A DNA stretch of 64,000 nucleotides from a virus (taxonomy: Duplodnaviria > Caudoviricetes): positions 1 to 64,000 of the IMG/VR virus record IMGVR_UViG_3300038443_000257; one strand, 5' to 3'. A model generated the notes under the pieces. It was not told the origin of the DNA and searched no databases. It was given only the letters and a program-made list of their open reading frames with translations. Positions 123 to 32,395 of this stretch are shown here, one piece after another. A program made the translations under genes and the position numbers. Each line of letters starts with the position of its first letter. Positions within the stretch are counted from its first letter, which is position 1.

Positions 123-215
123 TGGTGGAAAGTATTAGATTCGAACTAATGGAGCCGTATAAATAGACTCGACAGGTTAGCAACCTGCTGCCTTAAGCCA
201 CTCAGCCAACTTTCC
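123..215 (-). tRNA. tRNA-Ser(GCT)
   Basis: GGAAAGT acceptor stem, CAGG-TTGCTAA-CCTG anticodon arm, long variable arm, TTCGAAT T loop, encoded CCA. Confidence 0.92.
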
Positions 216-216
216 G

Positions 217-304
217 TGGTGCTCACTGTTGGATTTTAACCAACGCGGGATTTCTCCTCCGGGTTACAAAGCCGGTGCAATCGAACGAACTATGCGAAGT
301 GAGC
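217..304 (-). tRNA. atypical tRNA, centred anticodon TGT (Thr), long variable arm
   Basis: GCTCACT/AGTGAGC-A-CCA acceptor, CCGGC-TTTGTAA-CCCGG arm, GGA-GAAA-TCC variable stem, T loop TTAAAAT. Confidence 0.7.
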
Positions 305-24729: not shown

Positions 24730-25359
24730 TCATTTATTAGCCAGAGCAACCATACGCTGCCCAAAAAACACAACTTTCTGTGCGTCGTACAAACCATCAT
24801 CGTAACCTTTCTTTGCCACGCCAAGTTTACGGGCAGCACAAGAGCGCCAAATAGCCTTGAACGCATTCCCTTCTGCGTAGTTCATACCAAGAGCTTCAAT
24901 GATATCGTTACACTCAGCGATGTACGGGTCTTTGTCAGGATCGGTTGGTTTGTCTACGGGCACGGTGTAGTAGCTGACGGAACCACCCGTGTACTCATCG
25001 TCTTGTTGTTCCACTTCTTCCTCTACAATTTCAAATCGGTGTTGCGACCAAGAGCATTTCATACCTTCAAGATAGAAATCGCATGCATCGTTCCACACGT
25101 TTTCGCCAATCGCAGTGTAAACTTTTCCTTCCTCAAGCTGTTCTTCTGCGTTCATGTTGTCAATGCAACGTACACGGAACGGAAATTTTAGTTGCTCTTT
25201 AATCACTTCGCAATGCTCAGGGCCAATACCTACGTTCTTATCCTCTACAAGTGGGTAGTAATCATAACCGCCTCGGTGCACTGGCTTGCTCTCCACTTCG
25301 TATTCTTCCCCCACTTTGTACCAGTTGTCATCTGTGACACGGGTTACTCGTACTCGCAT
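24730..25359 (-). CDS. DUF3310-like domain protein with tandem N-terminal SH3-like repeats
   Basis: ECNDIIEALGMNYAEGNAFKAIWR. Confidence 0.7.
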   Translation of the reverse strand: MRVRVTRVTDDNWYKVGEEYEVESKPVHRGGYDYYPLVEDKNVGIGPEHCEVIKEQLKFPFRVRCIDNMNAEEQLEEGKVYTAIGENVWNDACDFYLEGMKCSWSQHRFEIVEEEVEQQDDEYTGGSVSYYTVPVDKPTDPDKDPYIAECNDIIEALGMNYAEGNAFKAIWRSCAARKLGVAKKGYDDGLYDAQKVVFFGQRMVALANK

Positions 25360-25391
25360 GATTCCCTCCTAAAATTGTTGTGAACGGGTGT

Positions 25392-25494
25392 ATGATGGCA
25401 CAGAACAACATTCGTGTCAAGAGTATTCTGCGTAAGAATGTTAGATCAAACTCTTAAAAATGTTGTTGACATGCGCTTCGTCGCAGCCTACAAT
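25392..25494. promoter_or_regulatory. divergent promoter pair at strand switch
   Basis: Minus TTGACA-17-CATCAT (25392-25420); plus TTGACA-17-TACAAT (25466-25494). Confidence 0.7.
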
Positions 25495-25521
25495 AAGCGA
25501 ACATTTTGATAAGGGGGATGT

Positions 25522-25791
25522 ATGAAAGGGTATCCAGTAGGTAGTTTGGTTGTTTTGCAGAACTGTACAAGGATTCCGGAGTTAAATGATGTGGAATGTA
25601 CAATCACAGCACCACTTGAAAGTAGGCTTACAATGATAGGGGAGATAGAAGCTTATCTAGTAGATTTTAAATATCATGGACACCAAGTAGCTCCGCAGAG
25701 GTGTCAAGTGCGCCTTAAGAAACTTCCGCCCGACGAAGCATTTGATAAGTTTCTTAACAACCTTAAGCAGCCAGTGGAGGAAACGGTATGA
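25522..25791 (+). CDS. hypothetical protein
   Basis: SD AAGGGGG. Confidence 0.7.
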   Translation: MKGYPVGSLVVLQNCTRIPELNDVECTITAPLESRLTMIGEIEAYLVDFKYHGHQVAPQRCQVRLKKLPPDEAFDKFLNNLKQPVEETV

Positions 25792-26087
25792 GTGTAGACG
25801 AGCTTAAAAACGATCTGTTTGATCGGGCATGGAACAACGAGTGTGACGGGCTTTGTGAAGAACATAGAGGCGAATGTAAAGTTGTGAGTGTAAGGGCTTG
25901 TAAGGTAGATTGGTGGTTCTCATACTGTGACGTAGCTATTGCAGAGGACACACGCAGAGGGTTGATTGTTACTGTGCATAATCTTGCCAAGATGTCTCGT
26001 GTAGAAGATACCCGCACACCAGATCAACGTGCCAAGGACGAGCTTTCCCATAATTTGCAGAAGCCTTACAACGTAGATGACCGATGA
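25788..26087 (+). CDS. hypothetical protein
   Basis: SD GGAGG, ATGA overlap. Confidence 0.7.
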   Translation: MSVDELKNDLFDRAWNNECDGLCEEHRGECKVVSVRACKVDWWFSYCDVAIAEDTRRGLIVTVHNLAKMSRVEDTRTPDQRAKDELSHNLQKPYNVDDR

Positions 26088-26149
26088 CACAAACTTGACA
26101 TCAACTCAATGTTGTGGTAAGATAACATCTTTAACGATAAGAGGATGTT

Positions 26150-26338
26150 ATGGACTACAAGAATTGTACCGTCGAAGAGTTGGCAGACTACGTAGAGCAA
26201 AGCCCAGCCGCGCGCATCACACAACAGATGATTTACTATCGTGATCGAGGCGTGCAGGAAATGGTTGACAAGATTGCTGAGGCTCGCAAGATTGTAAAGC
26301 GCCGTAAGCTCAAACGCCAGTTGGAGGCGATGGAGTAA
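26150..26338 (+). CDS. hypothetical protein
   Basis: SD GAGGA, promoter 26095-26123 TTGACA-17-TAAGAT. Confidence 0.7.
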   Translation: MDYKNCTVEELADYVEQSPAARITQQMIYYRDRGVQEMVDKIAEARKIVKRRKLKRQLEAME

Positions 26339-26339
26339 G

Positions 26340-27095
26340 ATGGTTAGAGTTGAACAAGACCCGTTCATAGGGCAAAGGTTTGGTGAGGAGGGGCAGTTAG
26401 AAGTTATAGGGAAAAGTGACAGGCGATATAGGGATTGCTTTCCTTACTATTTCGTCCACTGTACTATATGTAAAAATGATCCAGAGCTTCATGGAGATGC
26501 CATTTACGAGTGTTTCAAGTCAGCATTAAACAATGGCAAGTACCCTTGTGGATGTAGTTCCAGACCTTTCTGGAGTCAGGCGCAATACCGAACACTTATT
26601 AACAGGGCCTGCGAAAAGAAGCGTGTAAAATTAATATCCGCTGACGATATTATAACAGCAGACTCAAAGCTTACACTTTGTTGCGAAGCAGGACATATTT
26701 GGAGCACTACGAAGGTCGTAACTTTTGTAAGAGACAAGCACACTTGTGCATCTTGCTCGCAGAGAGGTTTTGACAAAAACAAGGCAGGATACGTCTACAT
26801 ATTGAAAATTTGCTCTGAAAGCCAAGGGTTTACCGGATACGGTATTACCGGGAATTTAAATAAAAGGCTCAGCACCCACGCAAGAAATCTTAAAAAGTTA
26901 GGAATGTCTATAGTAGACAGCCGAACGTTTGATATTGAAAGCGGAACGGTGGTGCAAGAAGTGGAAGAATCAATAAAAAAGATGTTTCCCACAGTTCGGC
27001 AGAACGTAGAGGGTTTTGCTAAAGAGGCCACTTATTTGGATTTATATGAAGATGTAGTGACTTTTGTAGAGGAGAAGATTTGTGAACTTATTTAA
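26340..27095 (+). CDS. zinc-ribbon / GIY-YIG-like homing endonuclease
   Basis: CTIC, PCGC, CASC, GFDKNKAGYVYIL, YGIT..LNKRL. Confidence 0.75.
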   Translation: MVRVEQDPFIGQRFGEEGQLEVIGKSDRRYRDCFPYYFVHCTICKNDPELHGDAIYECFKSALNNGKYPCGCSSRPFWSQAQYRTLINRACEKKRVKLISADDIITADSKLTLCCEAGHIWSTTKVVTFVRDKHTCASCSQRGFDKNKAGYVYILKICSESQGFTGYGITGNLNKRLSTHARNLKKLGMSIVDSRTFDIESGTVVQEVEESIKKMFPTVRQNVEGFAKEATYLDLYEDVVTFVEEKICELI

Positions 27096-27122
27096 ACTTG
27101 GCTTTGGAAATGACAGGGAGCG

Positions 27123-27293
27123 ATGATGAATTACAACGGTGACACAGAAGAGGACGTAGAAGCAAATTCTGTTGTGTCGAAGCTTATGGGTGACGATGAT
27201 CTTGAGGGAGTGCAGAAGTTTATTGCGGCAGACTATTTTGCTTGGGGTTGGGAAGCTGCTATGGATTTCGTGAAGAAGAAAGGGCAAAGTTGA
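27123..27293 (+). CDS. 56 aa hypothetical protein (not in ORF track)
   Basis: SD GGGAG, overlaps next start. Confidence 0.55.
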   Translation: MMNYNGDTEEDVEANSVVSKLMGDDDLEGVQKFIAADYFAWGWEAAMDFVKKKGQS

Positions 27294-27706
27294 GCACAAG
27301 CAATGCCCTGCTTCTGGCCCTCATGCTTGCAACAGGTGCAAATACGAAAGCTGCTGACGACATCTGCCTCAAGGCTGTAGCGTACAAGGAAGCAGGGAAT
27401 CAGCCAACACGAGGGGTCGCAGCCGTGATTCAAACTATCCGACACAGGGCCAAGAAACGTAAGAAGAGCGTGTGCAGTGTTGTGCGTGAGTCACATCAGT
27501 TTTCCTCTGTAAAGCGTGGCATGAATCTTAAGGCTGTAAAAATTCCTAAAAAGTTCTTGCACAAGTTTGCAGAGGCGAGTAAGATGCGAAGCGTTGTCAG
27601 GAGTTGTGTTGACAGTTTTCACTCAGGGGCACCGCCTAGTTGGGCAAGCAAGGGTAAGTTCGACAGGCGGATTGCAGATCATTCATTTTATTGTGTTGGT
27701 GTGTAG
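27290..27706 (+). CDS. SleB-like cell wall hydrolase (Hydrolase_2)
   Basis: Signal peptide, CLKAVAYKEAGNQ, VCSVV...QFS, IADHSFY. Confidence 0.88.
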   Translation: MSTSNALLLALMLATGANTKAADDICLKAVAYKEAGNQPTRGVAAVIQTIRHRAKKRKKSVCSVVRESHQFSSVKRGMNLKAVKIPKKFLHKFAEASKMRSVVRSCVDSFHSGAPPSWASKGKFDRRIADHSFYCVGV

Positions 27707-27714
27707 GAGGGGTT

Positions 27715-28050
27715 ATGTCAGTAAGTCACAGTGCGTTTCTTGGCATTGGTCGTCGGCTGTCAAGTGAAGAAGAGGTAAAGGAATTTCTGTTAGAGCATTA
27801 TAACGGGCTTGCAAAATGTCATGTTGAACAACTGAATGCAGGTTGGGATTTTGATGAGCTTCTTCCCTATCTGGAGGTCGATGTAAATTGCCTTGATTGC
27901 TATAATGGCGATGATTGGTTTGTTGGCTTTCGTGTTGGCAAAACTCAACAGGCTAATGAGCTTTCTGACAACGTGGCAGATGCAGTAAACCTTTGGGAGC
28001 AGGGGTTTCCCGGTGTTGAAAGTCGTGTTATTTCAGTGATTTATAGCTAA
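27715..28050 (+). CDS. hypothetical protein
   Basis: SD AGGAGG. Confidence 0.75.
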   Translation: MSVSHSAFLGIGRRLSSEEEVKEFLLEHYNGLAKCHVEQLNAGWDFDELLPYLEVDVNCLDCYNGDDWFVGFRVGKTQQANELSDNVADAVNLWEQGFPGVESRVISVIYS

Positions 28051-28066
28051 TTTTAAGGAGAAGAAG

Positions 28067-28261
28067 ATGACGAAAGAAGAAGCACAAAAAGCCATTGCAT
28101 ACAAACTGGCTGAGATTAGTGTTCTGTACCAAGAATGTGCAGAAATCGCAGAGAAAGCAAACGTGTATTTTCACTATAATGGTCCAGCAGGTTACGGTGA
28201 TGGTGGTTCGTACTGGCCCGGTTACGATGAGGGCTGGTCTGCTTCGTCCCAAAGCTGCTAA
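28067..28261 (+). CDS. small protein ending GWSASSQSC
   Basis: SD AAGGAG; paralogue of next gene. Confidence 0.8.
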   Translation: MTKEEAQKAIAYKLAEISVLYQECAEIAEKANVYFHYNGPAGYGDGGSYWPGYDEGWSASSQSC

Positions 28262-28289
28262 CAATTTAAATTTTTTTAAGGAGAAAATA

Positions 28290-28736
28290 ATGCAAGAAAT
28301 CATTATTGATGGTGTAAATCTGAACGAGATGAAGGTTAAGCATGATGCTCTGCAAGCTGAGATGCAACAGGCTCGTAACAGTATTCGTCAAGGTGCTGCT
28401 AAGTTCATTGCTGAGAAGATTGCAGAGGGGAAGAAAATTGTAGATGAACTGCTTGAGGAAGAAAACGATAAAGAAAAGGTTGAAGACCTTGCAAGTAAAG
28501 CTTTTGATCTTTTGTCCGCAGCAAGTTTTGTTAGCGATGTTGCTGGTGTTGCGTTCGACCTGCCTTACTATGACCGTCAAAGCGATTATTACCCTGACGG
28601 TACTCCTTACAGCAATCGCTTTGACGACAACGAGAATGGGCTGATTGAGTACGACAATCCTGCTATCAGCAAACTTTGGGGTTTGCTTGAAAGCATGGAA
28701 TCTGAAGTTCAAGATTGGAACACATCTTATTGCTAA
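28290..28736 (+). CDS. acidic protein ending DWNTSYC
   Basis: SD AAGGAG; shares helix-strand segment and C-terminal motif with previous gene. Confidence 0.8.
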   Translation: MQEIIIDGVNLNEMKVKHDALQAEMQQARNSIRQGAAKFIAEKIAEGKKIVDELLEEENDKEKVEDLASKAFDLLSAASFVSDVAGVAFDLPYYDRQSDYYPDGTPYSNRFDDNENGLIEYDNPAISKLWGLLESMESEVQDWNTSYC

Positions 28737-28753
28737 TGTAAAGGAAGCTTGAC

Positions 28754-29662
28754 ATGATTTTGATTGGTAGCTGCGCGTTGCAGCAGCATGTAAAACTGCC
28801 CGATGGACGTAAGATTTCTGACCAAGACTACGTGGGTACTTACGAAGAAGCGATGGAATTGCGTAAGCAAATCAATGCAACCGTATGCTTTCCAATCAAC
28901 GGGGGAAAGTCTATCTATATGCGTGGCAAAGACGGCTCTATCGTAGAAGTGGAGATCGCTTGGCCTGACAGTATGGCAGAGCGACTTGTCAAGTTTGTTG
29001 AGTCTCAGGAGGATAATCTTACCAGTTATATTGATGTCATTATTCCGTCCCTTGACGTGCTGTACTTGTTAAAGCTTTCGCACAGGTACAAAAAAGATTC
29101 TCCACATTGGTTGAAGACTCTTCGTGACATTCAGTTCATGCGAAAGCTTGGTGCTAAGATTCGTCCTGAGCACGAAGAATTCTTAAAACAGCGGGAGAAG
29201 GAAACTTACGATAACATTCTGCCAAAACTGAGCCAAAGTAAAAATGGATTCTTTAAAGATGACATCTATACGTGGGACCACGATACTATCCATCAAGCAG
29301 TTGCTATTGGCAGTCGTCCAGCGTATCTGGAATTCAAACCTGCGGATAGCGAAGTTATGGTGAGTAAGAAGATGTGGGACGAATGTTCTGACCAAATCAA
29401 GCTTAATGCTGCGTATGAAGAAATCTGTGTTTTATGCATTGAGCGTGCGCTGGTGCCTTTTCCTGATAAGTGGCCCAACCCTAAAAAAGCATTTGATCTT
29501 GCACACATGAAACTCGGGAGCAGCATTAGTGGCGGGTGGTTTCGCGAGTTCGTTTACGAGAGGTACGACGACATCCAAGCGATGTACAGCGACGAGTTTG
29601 TAACTAAATTTGAACAAGGGCTTGCGACAGGTGTTGTTAAGCCACATAGAGGAGGTAAATAA
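28754..29662 (+). CDS. Pol-beta superfamily nucleotidyltransferase-like protein
   Basis: LIGS.AL...SDQDY motif, third acidic VEVEI, LKLSHRY, DHDTIH. Confidence 0.75.
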   Translation: MILIGSCALQQHVKLPDGRKISDQDYVGTYEEAMELRKQINATVCFPINGGKSIYMRGKDGSIVEVEIAWPDSMAERLVKFVESQEDNLTSYIDVIIPSLDVLYLLKLSHRYKKDSPHWLKTLRDIQFMRKLGAKIRPEHEEFLKQREKETYDNILPKLSQSKNGFFKDDIYTWDHDTIHQAVAIGSRPAYLEFKPADSEVMVSKKMWDECSDQIKLNAAYEEICVLCIERALVPFPDKWPNPKKAFDLAHMKLGSSISGGWFREFVYERYDDIQAMYSDEFVTKFEQGLATGVVKPHRGGK

Positions 29663-29874
29663 TGAAATCTTATGTAGAAGTGGCAGTAACAATCTATAAG
29701 AATATTCTTGTTGAGGTTGAACATGGAGCTGAACACCACGAAGACGAGATTGTTGATATGGCTGTGGATGCACTGGATGCACCTGCCGATTCTGTGATTG
29801 AGGTGACGGGAGTGCTAGACAAGAAGCCTAGCGATAGAGACATGGCACTGTATGATGAGTTTCAGGAGGTATGA
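29662..29874 (+). CDS. acidic hypothetical protein
   Basis: SD GGAGG. Confidence 0.7.
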   Translation: MKSYVEVAVTIYKNILVEVEHGAEHHEDEIVDMAVDALDAPADSVIEVTGVLDKKPSDRDMALYDEFQEV

Positions 29875-30077
29875 TGAACGACAACCTAATGAAAAACTTT
29901 GAAGCACGTATGGCAGACAAGAAAGCTAACAAGCCTGTGCTGCACGACTTCACGGCAGAATTCAAAATTGGGCTGAAAGCGATTGACGAAGAGACGGCAC
30001 AACAAACTGTCGATATCATTAGTAAGCATCTTGAGAGTTTTGAGGATATTGAGAGTGCTAAGGGGGTGTTGAAGTGA
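29871..30077 (+). CDS. hypothetical protein
   Basis: Coupled ORF. Confidence 0.7.
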   Translation: MMNDNLMKNFEARMADKKANKPVLHDFTAEFKIGLKAIDEETAQQTVDIISKHLESFEDIESAKGVLK

Positions 30078-30388
30078 AAAAGACAATCCGAGTCGTCATC
30101 GAAAAAGAATACGAAATCGAACTGAAAGACAACATTCTTACACAAGAAAACATCAAAGAGTTTGAGTCTTACATGTGGGAACTTGATGGTGATACGCTGG
30201 AAGCGAAACAGGAAGAACTGTTCAAGTTTGCTGCACGCCAAATTGCAGAGTATGACGTAGATTTTGTAGAAGGTTTGGGCAACGTCTGCAAGGCTAGTAT
30301 GGTGGGGTATTATGAACGAAACGGCGCTGTCATGAATGTTGTGTGGAATGACACGTATGAAGATGTTGAGACGGAGGTGGTGGGGTGA
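30074..30388 (+). CDS. acidic hypothetical protein
   Basis: Coupled ORF, FVEGLG motif. Confidence 0.7.
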   Translation: MKKTIRVVIEKEYEIELKDNILTQENIKEFESYMWELDGDTLEAKQEELFKFAARQIAEYDVDFVEGLGNVCKASMVGYYERNGAVMNVVWNDTYEDVETEVVG

Positions 30389-30681
30389 CACACGAAGAAC
30401 GCCTAGCAGGCCTAGACCGCTATGATCTTACAAATGTTATCGAGCTTGCAAAGAAAAAGCTTGCTGTGTTGCAAGACGCAGATAAAGAAGAATATTATGT
30501 TGTGTCCGATGAATGGACCAACATTGGATTTTTCCGCAAAGATAATCTTGAGGGCGCTATTAAGATTATGACAGAGGTGTTACGTGGTGGTGCTGTCAAG
30601 GAGCGGGGAGATTATGTGCAGATTCAACTGCAACGTTGGTATGCGGATGAAGTGGAAGATTTGGTAAAGGGGCATGAATGA
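30385..30681 (+). CDS. hypothetical protein
   Basis: Coupled ORF. Confidence 0.7.
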   Translation: MTHEERLAGLDRYDLTNVIELAKKKLAVLQDADKEEYYVVSDEWTNIGFFRKDNLEGAIKIMTEVLRGGAVKERGDYVQIQLQRWYADEVEDLVKGHE

Positions 30682-31658
30682 TTGAATGTAGAGGTAAAGG
30701 AAGTGTTGCACGAATCCTCAAGGACAGTGTAAGTCCTTCCGGACATCGGCTTACGACGATGGAAATTGAAGTGCCCCGCATTGTATGGTGCGAATTCCTC
30801 ACACACGGCATGCTTGCTCGTAATGCACATAGTAGCCGAGCTATTCCGTTCAATAAGATGATTGAGCAGCTTACGGGTAAGCCTGTGCGATTTGGCGAGG
30901 CTAACAAAGGTATGCAGGATAAGGGCGAAGAGTTTGGCAACCTCATCAAGATTGTTCGGCACTCCGGAACTTATTTGTACACCCCGCAAGAAGCATGGGA
31001 ATTAGCTAAAGAAGATGCTGTTGAGTGGTCAAAAGCATATTATGAAGCGGGATACCATAAACAAGTTTACAACCGCCTAACTGAAGCATTTCAAATGATT
31101 AAGGCTGTTGTGTCTGCTACGGAGTGGGACAACTACTATTGGCTTCGTGACGATGTTGCAGCCGATCCAACTCTTCACGATCTGGCTAGTACAATGCGTA
31201 AGGCTCATGAGCAAAGTGTTCCGCAACTGCTTCAACCGGGTGAATGGCACCTACCGTACGTCGATGAAACTCGGGTAAATGGACAACAGTTTTTCTATAT
31301 TGTAGATGCTGAAGGTGTTGAACATTTTGTATCACTGGAGCAGGCAATTAAAGTATCTTCGGCCCGAACAGGCGCAGTTTCGTTCCGTGCTGTTGATTAC
31401 GGCCTTGAACAATGTTTGCGAGTGTACGACAAGCTTGTTGGTGACGATAGGAAGCATGCTTCTGCTATGCAGCATCAGGCAACGCCGATGAAAGATGCGC
31501 ATTTCCTTAATGGTGTCAATATTGCAGGCATTGCTTCTACTTGGGAGCCCGGTGTTAGCCACGCCGACCGTGAAGGTGGCCTTTGGAGTGCACAGTTCTG
31601 CGGATGGATCATGAATCGTAAACGTATTCCGGGCGAGAATTACAAGGCACCAAAATAA
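30678..31658 (+). CDS. thyX: flavin-dependent thymidylate synthase-like protein
   Basis: EFLTH...RNAHSSRAIP, HKQVYNRL, HASAMQHQATP. Confidence 0.85.
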   Translation: MIECRGKGSVARILKDSVSPSGHRLTTMEIEVPRIVWCEFLTHGMLARNAHSSRAIPFNKMIEQLTGKPVRFGEANKGMQDKGEEFGNLIKIVRHSGTYLYTPQEAWELAKEDAVEWSKAYYEAGYHKQVYNRLTEAFQMIKAVVSATEWDNYYWLRDDVAADPTLHDLASTMRKAHEQSVPQLLQPGEWHLPYVDETRVNGQQFFYIVDAEGVEHFVSLEQAIKVSSARTGAVSFRAVDYGLEQCLRVYDKLVGDDRKHASAMQHQATPMKDAHFLNGVNIAGIASTWEPGVSHADREGGLWSAQFCGWIMNRKRIPGENYKAPK

Positions 31659-31662
31659 GGTG

Positions 31663-31691
31663 TTGACAAGCCTCTCAACCTCCGCCATAAT
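31663..31691 (+). promoter_or_regulatory. sigma70 promoter
   Basis: TTGACA-17-CATAAT. Confidence 0.75.
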
Positions 31692-31743
31692 TCTTTCGTG
31701 CTCTACAAGGCACATTTCTAAAACAACTAAGAAAGGTAACACC

Positions 31744-32103
31744 ATGAAGAAAATTATCACCGCTCTGTTCCTGTCCATGCTGGCCTCGTCGGCATTCGCG
31801 CAAATCGCTGTCTCGGCATCTTACGAAGCCCCTACACTGGCATCGGATGCAAAAGATGGTCGGCGCCCTGCTCCGTCGCTGAGCGATTGCTGTGGCGTTC
31901 CTGTGTCTGCTACGGCTGTTGCTTCGGATGTCTCTGCCCCGTCCGTTGGCGCAATGGGCTGCTGCGGTGTCCCTGTCTCGGCTCCTCAGTATGCCAAGAA
32001 AGATGAAGACAATTCGGATTCGTTGGCAATGGCAGGCTTGGGCTTCGGCCTGTTTGGTCTGGTAGGTGTGAGCAAGCTGGCTCGTCGGAAGAAGCAGAAG
32101 TAA
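31744..32103 (+). CDS. secreted, C-terminally anchored protein resembling PEP-CTERM proteins
   Basis: Signal peptide ..SSAFA, CCGVPVSA x2, Gly/Leu TM helix, ARRKKQK tail. Confidence 0.8.
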   Translation: MKKIITALFLSMLASSAFAQIAVSASYEAPTLASDAKDGRRPAPSLSDCCGVPVSATAVASDVSAPSVGAMGCCGVPVSAPQYAKKDEDNSDSLAMAGLGFGLFGLVGVSKLARRKKQK

Positions 32104-32118
32104 TGTTCTAGCGAACAT

Positions 32119-32145
32119 AGAGGGCCGAAAGGCTCTCTTTCGTTT
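32119..32145 (+). terminator. rho-independent terminator
   Basis: AGAGGGCC-GAAA-GGCTCTCT then T-rich. Confidence 0.8.
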
Positions 32146-32161
32146 AATTTGAGGAGGTTGT

Positions 32162-32395
32162 ATGCAGGAAATTAAAGGGAAGCTGTTGTATTATTCATAT
32201 AACGAGGAAGATGTTCTCTTCTGCTATCCGCCCAATGAGAAGTGGTTTTTAGAGGTGTATCCTTCCAGTCTTGAATTGTGGGAGAACTCCGACCCGGCAG
32301 AGTTCATTGAAAGATTTGCACCGGAGGACTTTGAAAAAGCGATCAGTAAGGCCGAAGGTATTTTTGGCGATCTTCCTGCACGTTTTGGTAATTAA
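32162..32395 (+). CDS. hypothetical protein
   Basis: SD GAGGAGG. Confidence 0.7.
   Translation: MQEIKGKLLYYSYNEEDVLFCYPPNEKWFLEVYPSSLELWENSDPAEFIERFAPEDFEKAISKAEGIFGDLPARFGN

Follow-up and report, generated by a model that had tools for sequence, protein, structure and literature searches.

Why should a phage encode, in tandem, two small acidic proteins that end in much the same residues and, immediately after them, an enzyme that resembles a nucleotidyltransferase (NTase)? The question is raised by a locus within positions 1 to 64,000 of the IMG/VR virus record IMGVR_UViG_3300038443_000257; this 64-kb window, the whole stretch of DNA that was analysed, is the first part of an 87,495-bp phage contig. 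The small proteins, here called sp1 and sp2, both finish in W-x-x-S followed shortly by a Cys, and the gene for the enzyme lies just downstream. The pairing of tailed proteins and enzyme recurs across hundreds of very different phages and hence, judged from sequence, looks like an undescribed enzyme-plus-substrate module. The reading that we favor, with a probability of roughly 0.4, is that the flexible tail is the target of the enzyme, with nucleotidylation or phosphorylation of the invariant Ser as the most likely reaction, and that early effector proteins are matured in this way. The three genes and the two tails are as follows, in window coordinates:

28067..28261, + strand: sp1, 64 amino acids (aa), isoelectric point (pI) 4.5, acidic, phrog_899, short core type
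28235..28258, + strand: tail of sp1, W-S-A-S-S-Q-S-C then stop, W-to-C distance 7
28290..28736, + strand: sp2 (ATG at 28290, stop ends at 28736), 148 aa, pI 4.2, net charge -17, phrog_899
28716..28733, + strand: tail of sp2, W-N-T-S-Y-C then stop, W-to-C distance 5
28754..29662, + strand: enzyme, 302 aa, predicted Pol-beta nucleotidyltransferase core then helical domain, DUF7277 + DUF7275, phrog_2141

Is the shared tail more than a coincidence? A preliminary description of this DNA had reported that both small genes end in Trp-x-x-Ser...Cys, and the C-termini do read GWSASSQSC-stop and DWNTSYC-stop. The observation is real and far beyond chance. The pattern W.{0,3}S.{0,4}C at the end of an open reading frame (ORF) is found in 2 of the 966 ORFs of at least 30 aa in the whole 87.5-kb genome, namely the adjacent sp1 and sp2, and 30 of the 966 end in Cys. 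The tail is also kept in relatives that were found without its help. A profile built from 26 sp1-type sequences from which the tail had been removed was searched against 1.84 billion representatives, yielding 1,153 matches at E 1e-3 or better, 379 of them at 1e-10 or better. Among the best 150 matches, 138 have the strict tail, 4 have the tail followed by 1-3 residues, and 8 have no tail; several of these 8 terminate just past the Gly-rich loop. Since the profile lacked the tail, the way in which these relatives were found does not account for the conservation of the tail.

Which residues of the tail are conserved? The W-to-C distance in 288 unique tails is 7 in 224 cases and 5 in 50, with other spacings in the remaining 14. 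Because of these two dominant registers, the core of the tail can be written as W-x-x-S with the Cys 4 or 2 residues later. The residue at W+3, a position that the search expression left unforced, is Ser in 224/224 tails of distance 7 and 50/50 of distance 5, or 274/274 in total, and never Thr, Ala or Gly. Trp, Ser and Cys are likewise invariant in alignments of 26 sp1 relatives (W57, S60 and C64; alignment A2) and of 19 relatives together with sp2 (W143, S146 and C148; alignment A4). The preliminary description had taken the shared terminal Ser/Cys tail as a substrate or reactive handle, and the weight given to its Cys has to be reduced, since the residue that never varies is the Ser at W+3. 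Its expectation of conserved termini was borne out for that Ser and for the strict tail, and less completely for Cys as the very last residue: of 151 members defined by homology, 141 end in Cys, and in most of the remaining 10 another 1-4 residues come after the motif. About 6% of members thus run past the Cys, so a free carboxylate is not essential, and these variant sequences suggest that the conserved feature is the thiol rather than the free C-terminal carboxylate. Variant tails with 1-3 residues after the Cys are found at L076:3262-3480 and in P0143, P0188, P0258 and P0259.

Do sp1 and sp2 belong together apart from their tails? The preliminary description called them paralogous, and at the level of the family this stands. 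Both match phrog_899 (E 4.5e-10 for sp1, E 1.6e-6 for sp2), colinearly and on the C-terminal half of the profile. Single-linkage clustering by BLAST of all same-strand ORFs of at least 60 aa from 74 loci places them in one 151-member cluster, and they still co-cluster when the last 10 residues are removed from every ORF (127 members, 118 of them tailed). As a pairwise statement it does not stand: a BLASTP comparison of sp1 with sp2 is not significant (E 0.19) and covers a stretch other than the one aligned in the preliminary description. That earlier alignment is roughly consistent with the colinear PHROG matches, whereas hhalign of the ortholog alignments pairs sp1 residues 1-23 with sp2 residues 31-53 (77% probability, 23 columns). 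The longer sp2 represents the long type of the phrog_899 family, with an additional N-terminal helical region, and phmmer with sp2 among the locus ORFs recovers 20 relatives at E 3.7e-7 or better, 19 of which form alignment A4 with it. Comparison of either protein with Pfam, NCBIfam and PADLOC gave nothing above threshold, and tblastn of sp2 against phages gave no match at 1e-3. The model of sp1 has a long helix at residues 3-31 and two short strands, and a Foldseek search of the PDB with it returned nothing at E 0.001 or better. Its tail is modeled with a low predicted local distance difference test score (pLDDT), the last two 10-residue blocks having values of 58 and 50.

How closely are the tailed proteins tied to the enzyme? 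Eighty IMG/VR loci were fetched with a profile made from an alignment of 40 enzyme relatives at 41-77% identity (alignment A1); the enzymes in these loci are 36-77% identical to the query, and with three phages added there were 73 non-redundant loci. ORFs were called from the longest start, and some ORF lengths are therefore over-estimates. ORFs with the strict tail, 1-5 per locus, lie within 2 kb upstream of the enzyme gene on the same strand in 66 of the 73 loci. The other seven comprise three loci with 0-365 bases of upstream DNA, two with tailed ORFs elsewhere in the locus, one with a variant tail in which the Cys lies two residues from the end (L076), and one with no tailed ORF (L059). 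Put another way, within 2 kb upstream on the same strand 158 of the 812 ORFs of the related loci have the tail pattern, versus 26 of 5801 elsewhere. Co-occurrence across phage genomes, which the preliminary description had proposed as a check, is thus observed. Across 74 loci, these 73 and the window, the enzyme family is present in 74, the small-protein family in 63 and the next most frequent family in 16. No third partner is conserved: the enzyme and the small proteins are the only two families kept from locus to locus.

The same linkage is seen among deposited phages. A tblastn search with the enzyme matches 726 phage records, all at less than 60% identity, and the hosts of these phages include Escherichia (260), Acinetobacter, Aeromonas, Pseudomonas, Vibrio, Gordonia and Streptomyces. 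There are two tailed genes just upstream of the enzyme gene in Ralstonia phage RsoM2USA, three in Phapecoctavirus DE16 and one in Pseudoalteromonas H101. The association spans T4-like phages, Phapecoctavirus, a 344-kb Ralstonia phage and Pseudoalteromonas H101. The laboratory phage RB69 carries the module as ORF134c with ORF136c, 137c and 138c, an insertion between e.2 and e.3. A scan of 185,579 species genomes found only seven loci, all in metagenome bins and six of them with tailed ORFs. The enzyme family is essentially confined to phage genomes.

At L084:2021-2327 in RB69, ORF139c has the family helix and the Gly-rich loop but no tail, while the overlapping 33-aa ORF138c carries the tail. 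The phrog_899 match across the two contains four stop codons, and the pair looks like a broken or frameshifted copy.

Could the genes be linked for a reason that has nothing to do with the chemistry of the enzyme? The tail might be a docking, metal-binding or stability signal read by a host factor, with the enzyme doing something else and the genes co-traveling as a mobile early-gene cassette. The module does lie in variable early-gene regions beside homing endonucleases, in some phages tailed genes lie downstream of the enzyme, or at a distance of over 1 kb, and nucleotidyl transfer leaves the Trp and the Cys unexplained. The locus sample bears on this question in one direction, since it was chosen through the enzyme and is blind to tailed proteins that live without it; these were addressed by a tblastn search with sp1 (17 records) and a whole-record search with phrog_899 (5 records). 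The 17 sp1 matches are all in Stenotrophomonas and Pseudomonas phages. One of them, Pseudomonas phage SYP, was found via sp1 alone and checked by whole-record search; it has the enzyme 1.4 kb downstream. In four of the five whole records every strong phrog_899 match adjoins the enzyme gene, and the fifth, H101, has only one weak match, away from it; the other weaker matches in whole records, too, cover only the N-terminal part of the profile. No strong phrog_899 match away from the enzyme was seen in any phage checked. The association also survives divergence of the enzyme to ~36% identity and passage through very different phage groups. Taken with these observations, a cassette of chemically independent genes is quite unlikely. 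The preliminary description had proposed an enzyme with a dedicated carrier or substrate. Comparative genomics strongly supports the dedicated pairing, through synteny at 36-77% enzyme identity, the restriction to two families and the retention of the tail; the substrate role itself is a matter of interpretation.

What kind of enzyme is it? The residues that define the candidate active site are as follows:

28766..28771, + strand: NTase motif I, G5-S6, kept in homologues
28820..28828, + strand: NTase motif II, D23-x-D25 (DQD), metal ligands by analogy
28946..28948, + strand: third acidic residue, E65, E or D in homologues

The protein begins MILIGS, has DQD at residues 23-25, and includes LKLSH and DHDTIH, the two stretches that the preliminary description had singled out in the helical domain. 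Pfam assigns DUF7277 to residues 1-80 (50.8 bits, E 2.9e-13) and DUF7275 to residues 102-279 (186.9 bits, E 4.4e-55), both above the curated cut-off of 27 bits, and the best PHROG match is phrog_2141 (E 1.7e-83). NCBIfam and PADLOC have no family for it. G5, D23, D25 and E65 are invariant in A1 and S6 is nearly so. Among 75 homologues from the loci, G5 is kept in 73, S6 in 72, D23 and D25 in 73 each and E65 in 69, with D in a further 5. By its motifs (hG[GS], [DE]x[DE] and, on the strand that follows, a third acidic residue) the protein is a member of the Pol-beta superfamily, as the preliminary description had recognized, and with the GS, DxD and E positions retained it looks active. A1 contains a second conserved set, K107, H110, R111, H118, K121, T122 and D125, H176, D177 and H180, E222, E223, E230 and R231, and K253, S257, G261 and R264; within it, the cluster H110, H118, H176, D177, H180, E222 and E223 lies outside the NTase core. 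The enzymes are not basic, with a median pI of 6.3 and a median net charge of -3.5 across the 75 homologues. A HEPN-like reading of the stretch SHRYKKDSPH, suggested by the Rx4-6H motif alone, was dropped.

The AlphaFold2 (AF2) model of the enzyme (pLDDT 92.5, predicted template modeling score 0.86) has the alpha-beta-alpha-beta-alpha-beta core fold of the Pol-beta superfamily. A Foldseek search of the PDB placed the toxin MenT1 first (8an4, E 5.6e-5), followed in order by a fungal NTase-like protein, CCA-adding enzymes, TglT/MenT3, JHP933, ANT(2'')-Ia and LnuA. An exhaustive VIA search gave MenT1 a Z of 9.5, 5uvd 8.6, ANT(2'') 8.6, TglT (6j7n) 8.5, LnuA 8.2 and MenT4 (6y56) 8.1, and residues 1 to ~150 align with eight NTases at Z 8.0-9.5. 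The likeness may extend to both lobes: the MenT1 match has 150 aligned residues spanning 1-271 and the TglT match spans 1-270, although a VIA Z of about 8 can reflect a common arrangement. For residues 165-300, nothing rose above Z 4 in the whole-model VIA search, in which the segment was not folded alone. ESM Atlas neighbors of the enzyme are AbiEii, DUF6036, DUF2204, Aminoglyc_resit and NTP_transf_5 clusters. The models thus suggest that the closest folds are the MenT/AbiEii-type toxins and the ANT(2'')/LnuA O-nucleotidyltransferases. A search for fused, longer forms of the enzyme scored none, which is weak evidence. Other forms of the domains do occur: BFVD holds modeled DUF7275 proteins of giant eukaryotic viruses (Sylvanvirus, 508 aa; Satyrvirus, 571 aa), Stenotrophomonas phage IME13 has a 168-aa protein with DUF7275 only, and Pseudomonas phage KIL2 has a 117-aa protein with DUF7277 only.

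The structural placement brings in the main rival to substrate modification. The enzyme could act on RNA, such as tRNA 3' ends, with the small proteins serving as regulators or antitoxin-like partners, as in the MenAT systems. Bound through their long N-terminal helix, such partners would inactivate the enzyme or redirect it, while the tail would occlude the active site or set off autophosphorylation of the serine in the GS motif. MenT1, MenT3 and MenT4 are the top structural matches; MenT and AbiEii proteins seem to share the layout of an N-terminal NTase lobe followed by a helical lobe; and the order of a small gene and then the NTase gene resembles MenA1-MenT1. According to PMC11375011, MenA1 meets MenT1 by way of one extended alpha-helix and induces autophosphorylation, and the prediction for sp1 is mainly a single long helix (residues 3-31). 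The differences concern partners, charge and distribution. MenT modifies the 3'-OH of RNA; this enzyme is near-neutral and not obviously RNA-binding. It gives no match to PF08843, the Pfam AbiEii family, at E up to 1, and the A1 profile has no match in the PDB. The family is phage-borne, apart from the seven metagenome-bin loci, and has 1-5 partner genes per enzyme rather than one. Those partners share a conserved Cys tail, and the tail, not the helix, is their invariant portion. Many clients per enzyme and a poorly ordered tail fit substrates better than a one-to-one inhibitor, and a MenAT-like regulator pair is in our view unlikely.

If the small proteins are instead substrates, as we favor, how would the module work? 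It would be a self-contained, two-component phage system: a Pol-beta-fold NTase with its own conserved helical domain, and small acidic clients encoded just upstream, two in this phage and 1-5 in other loci. The enzyme would recognize the flexible C-terminal tail of the clients, W-x-x-S with the Cys 2 or 4 residues later, and modify it covalently, most probably by nucleotidyl transfer to the hydroxyl of the invariant Ser. Alternatively, the group could be a phosphoryl placed on the Ser, as in MenT autophosphorylation. The variable N-terminal bodies of the clients would be the working parts, expressed early as effectors against host targets, in takeover of the host or counter-defense. We infer the contact between enzyme and tail, the residue and group involved, and the biological role; an anti-defense role in particular is pure conjecture.

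Why the Ser? Modification of this residue is favored because the nearest folds transfer a nucleoside monophosphate (NMP) to hydroxyls, because MenT1 can phosphorylate a Thr, and because the NTase-fold protein PsmN is needed to decorate a phosphoserine. First, ANT(2'')-Ia, LnuA and LinB, whose NTase cores superpose on residues 1 to ~150 at Z 8.2-8.6, carry out the reaction proposed here, transfer of an NMP to a hydroxyl of the substrate. Unlike the phage enzyme, ANT(2'') and LnuA modify the OH groups of small molecules, these enzymes have no DUF7275 helical domain, and the phage genes have no genomic link to resistance. Second, phosphorylation of a protein hydroxyl is documented for the MenT clade, MenT1 being able to phosphorylate a Thr in its own active site (PMC11375011). 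Third, PsmN, of the NTP_transf_5 type, offers a precedent for C-terminal Ser. According to PMC6993621, this NTase-fold protein of the pseudomycoidin lasso-peptide cluster was modeled by its authors on ANT(2''), and it needs its DxD pair for decoration of the (phospho)serine at the C-terminus of a peptide made on the ribosome. NTP_transf_5 clusters are among the Atlas neighbors of the phage enzyme, at a distance (feature score 0.90, template modeling score 0.43), while the enzyme has no match to PF14907 (NTP_transf_5) at E up to 1. PsmN is bacterial, works with a kinase, a leader peptide and an exporter, and adds a hexose onto the phosphate; its clients are short peptides, as opposed to the folded 60-150-aa proteins here. 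Among other Pol-beta-fold enzymes, MntA-HepT and GlnE/GlnD attach AMP or UMP to a Tyr hydroxyl on a dedicated partner. They differ from the module in that the acceptor Tyr lies inside folded domains, not in a C-terminal tail, and each enzyme has one partner.

Several observations weigh against modification of the Ser by this enzyme. First, the protein that matches best in structure is a toxin that modifies tRNA rather than protein. Second, the A1 profile has 0 matches among PDB sequences at E up to 10 and no Pfam family besides DUF7277 and DUF7275 passes threshold, so there is no sequence-level link to any characterized enzyme. Third, simple nucleotidylation of the Ser would not explain the roles of the invariant Trp and Cys, and the ~6% of members with residues after the Cys have to be accommodated. 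Fourth, PADLOC has no family for the enzyme or for sp1, and for sp2 it gives only a match of 0.039 to gop, which lends an anti-defense role no direct support. Fifth, a short-form branch of the enzyme has different small neighbors without a Cys tail. A prediction of the complex between enzyme (A1) and sp1 (A2) scored 0.00 in both runs, which were made with no controls, and bears neither way.

The short-form branch corresponds to phrog_6944. Its members, of ~250 aa, retain GS...DxD and DUF7275 and are found in Streptomyces phage Blueeyedbeauty, Gordonia phage Culver and Vibrio phage VH7D (L095:2330-3780, L096:2312-3863 and L097:2043-3100). They are flanked by a small-protein family (phrog_18295, 8206 and 13591) with a GGGEG stretch and a Tyr/Ser/Trp-rich segment.

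Can the Cys be given a part in the chemistry? A broader proposal is that this is a private phage maturation system, in which one NTase-like enzyme would make covalent warheads of the W-x-x-S...C tails of small effectors. Such a warhead might consist of a Ser-nucleotide ester or, in the boldest version, of a dehydroalanine, derived from the Ser, that is joined to the terminal Cys in a thioether ring. We consider such a system very unlikely. The ring has been worked out as a proposal of its own: the Ser would be nucleotidylated as a leaving group and eliminated to dehydroalanine by the His/Asp-rich helical domain, and the Cys thiol would add to it, giving a lanthionine-like ring on a folded protein. 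It would account for a Ser at W+3 that is never replaced by Thr, Ala or Gly, for a Cys held at 2 or 4 residues from it, and for the apparent importance of the thiol over the carboxylate in members with residues past the Cys. The second conserved cluster outside the NTase core (H110, H118, H176, D177, H180, E222 and E223) could supply the elimination site. Against this, no lyase or cyclase fold was detected in residues 165-300, all matches being below Z 4, and we know of no precedent for nucleotidylation-driven dehydration. The ring is conjecture throughout and highly improbable, and nucleotidylation or phosphorylation of the Ser is the reading that we retain.

What would such a module mean for phage biology? 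The window genes are members of PHROG 899 and of PHROG 2141 with DUF7277 + DUF7275, which are function-unknown catalogue entries, none of which records the pairing or the tail. A literature search on DUF7275, DUF7277, the phrog families and the RB69 ORF names, with supplementary files outside its reach, found no account of the module. A second search, on phage small proteins with a C-terminal cysteine and a nucleotidyltransferase, found none on the module by title or abstract among the matches listed. The present analysis adds the test with a profile that lacks the tail, the finding that Ser is invariant at W+3, the structural placement near MenT and ANT, the absence of a third partner, and the short-form branch with different neighbors. 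The scale is large, with the enzyme in 726 deposited phage genomes, including RB69, and the tailed family in at least 1,153 clusters at 50% identity; despite this scale, neither has a described function. A conserved W-x-x-S...C tag beside a dedicated enzyme is a hallmark of post-translational systems. Should the tails prove to be modified by the enzyme, there would be three implications: a new kind of protein modification in phage biology, a way to find a large set of early effectors by their tail, and a use of the MenT/AbiEii-type NTase fold that is directed at proteins. Should the small proteins instead regulate an RNA-modifying NTase, phages would carry their own MenT-like translation modifiers. 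If the private maturation system were real, the chemistry of peptides that are made on the ribosome and modified after translation (RiPPs) would extend to folded phage proteins, with a new class of modified effectors in phage-host conflict.

The three genes are tandem on the + strand with intergenic gaps of 28 nt and 17 nt, and each has a putative ribosome-binding site. The AAGGAG Shine-Dalgarno sequence claimed for both small genes is present, and the enzyme gene has a related one:

28055..28060, + strand: AAGGAG, putative ribosome-binding site of sp1, read from sequence, 6 nt 5' of the ATG at 28067
28278..28283, + strand: AAGGAG, putative ribosome-binding site of sp2, read from sequence
28741..28746, + strand: AAGGAA, putative ribosome-binding site of the enzyme gene, read from sequence

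A scan of 25300-32200 for promoters and terminators gave counts no higher than those in shuffled controls, so it is the tight gene spacing alone that supports the operon boundaries. Megablast of the locus against phages gave no match. The surroundings of the module contain several other genes. At 26340-27095 (+), 1 kb upstream, a 251-aa protein has a CapR homology domain (E 6.5e-17), a weak GIY-YIG match and a match to phrog_681 'endonuclease', and is probably a homing endonuclease. The ORF at 27242-27706 (+), of 154 aa, belongs to the sole other neighbor family that occurs in more than 10 loci (16/74, at a median of 1.7 kb upstream). At 30678-31658 (+), 1 kb downstream of the module, a 326-aa protein matches phrog_85 'thymidylate synthase' (E 2.3e-69) but Pfam Thy1 (ThyX) at only E 0.075, and is a divergent ThyX-like enzyme; a thymidylate synthase is also found near the enzyme gene in H101 and VH7D. 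Near the start of the window, 123-304 (-) contains adjacent tRNA-Ser(GCT) and tRNA-Thr(TGT) genes.

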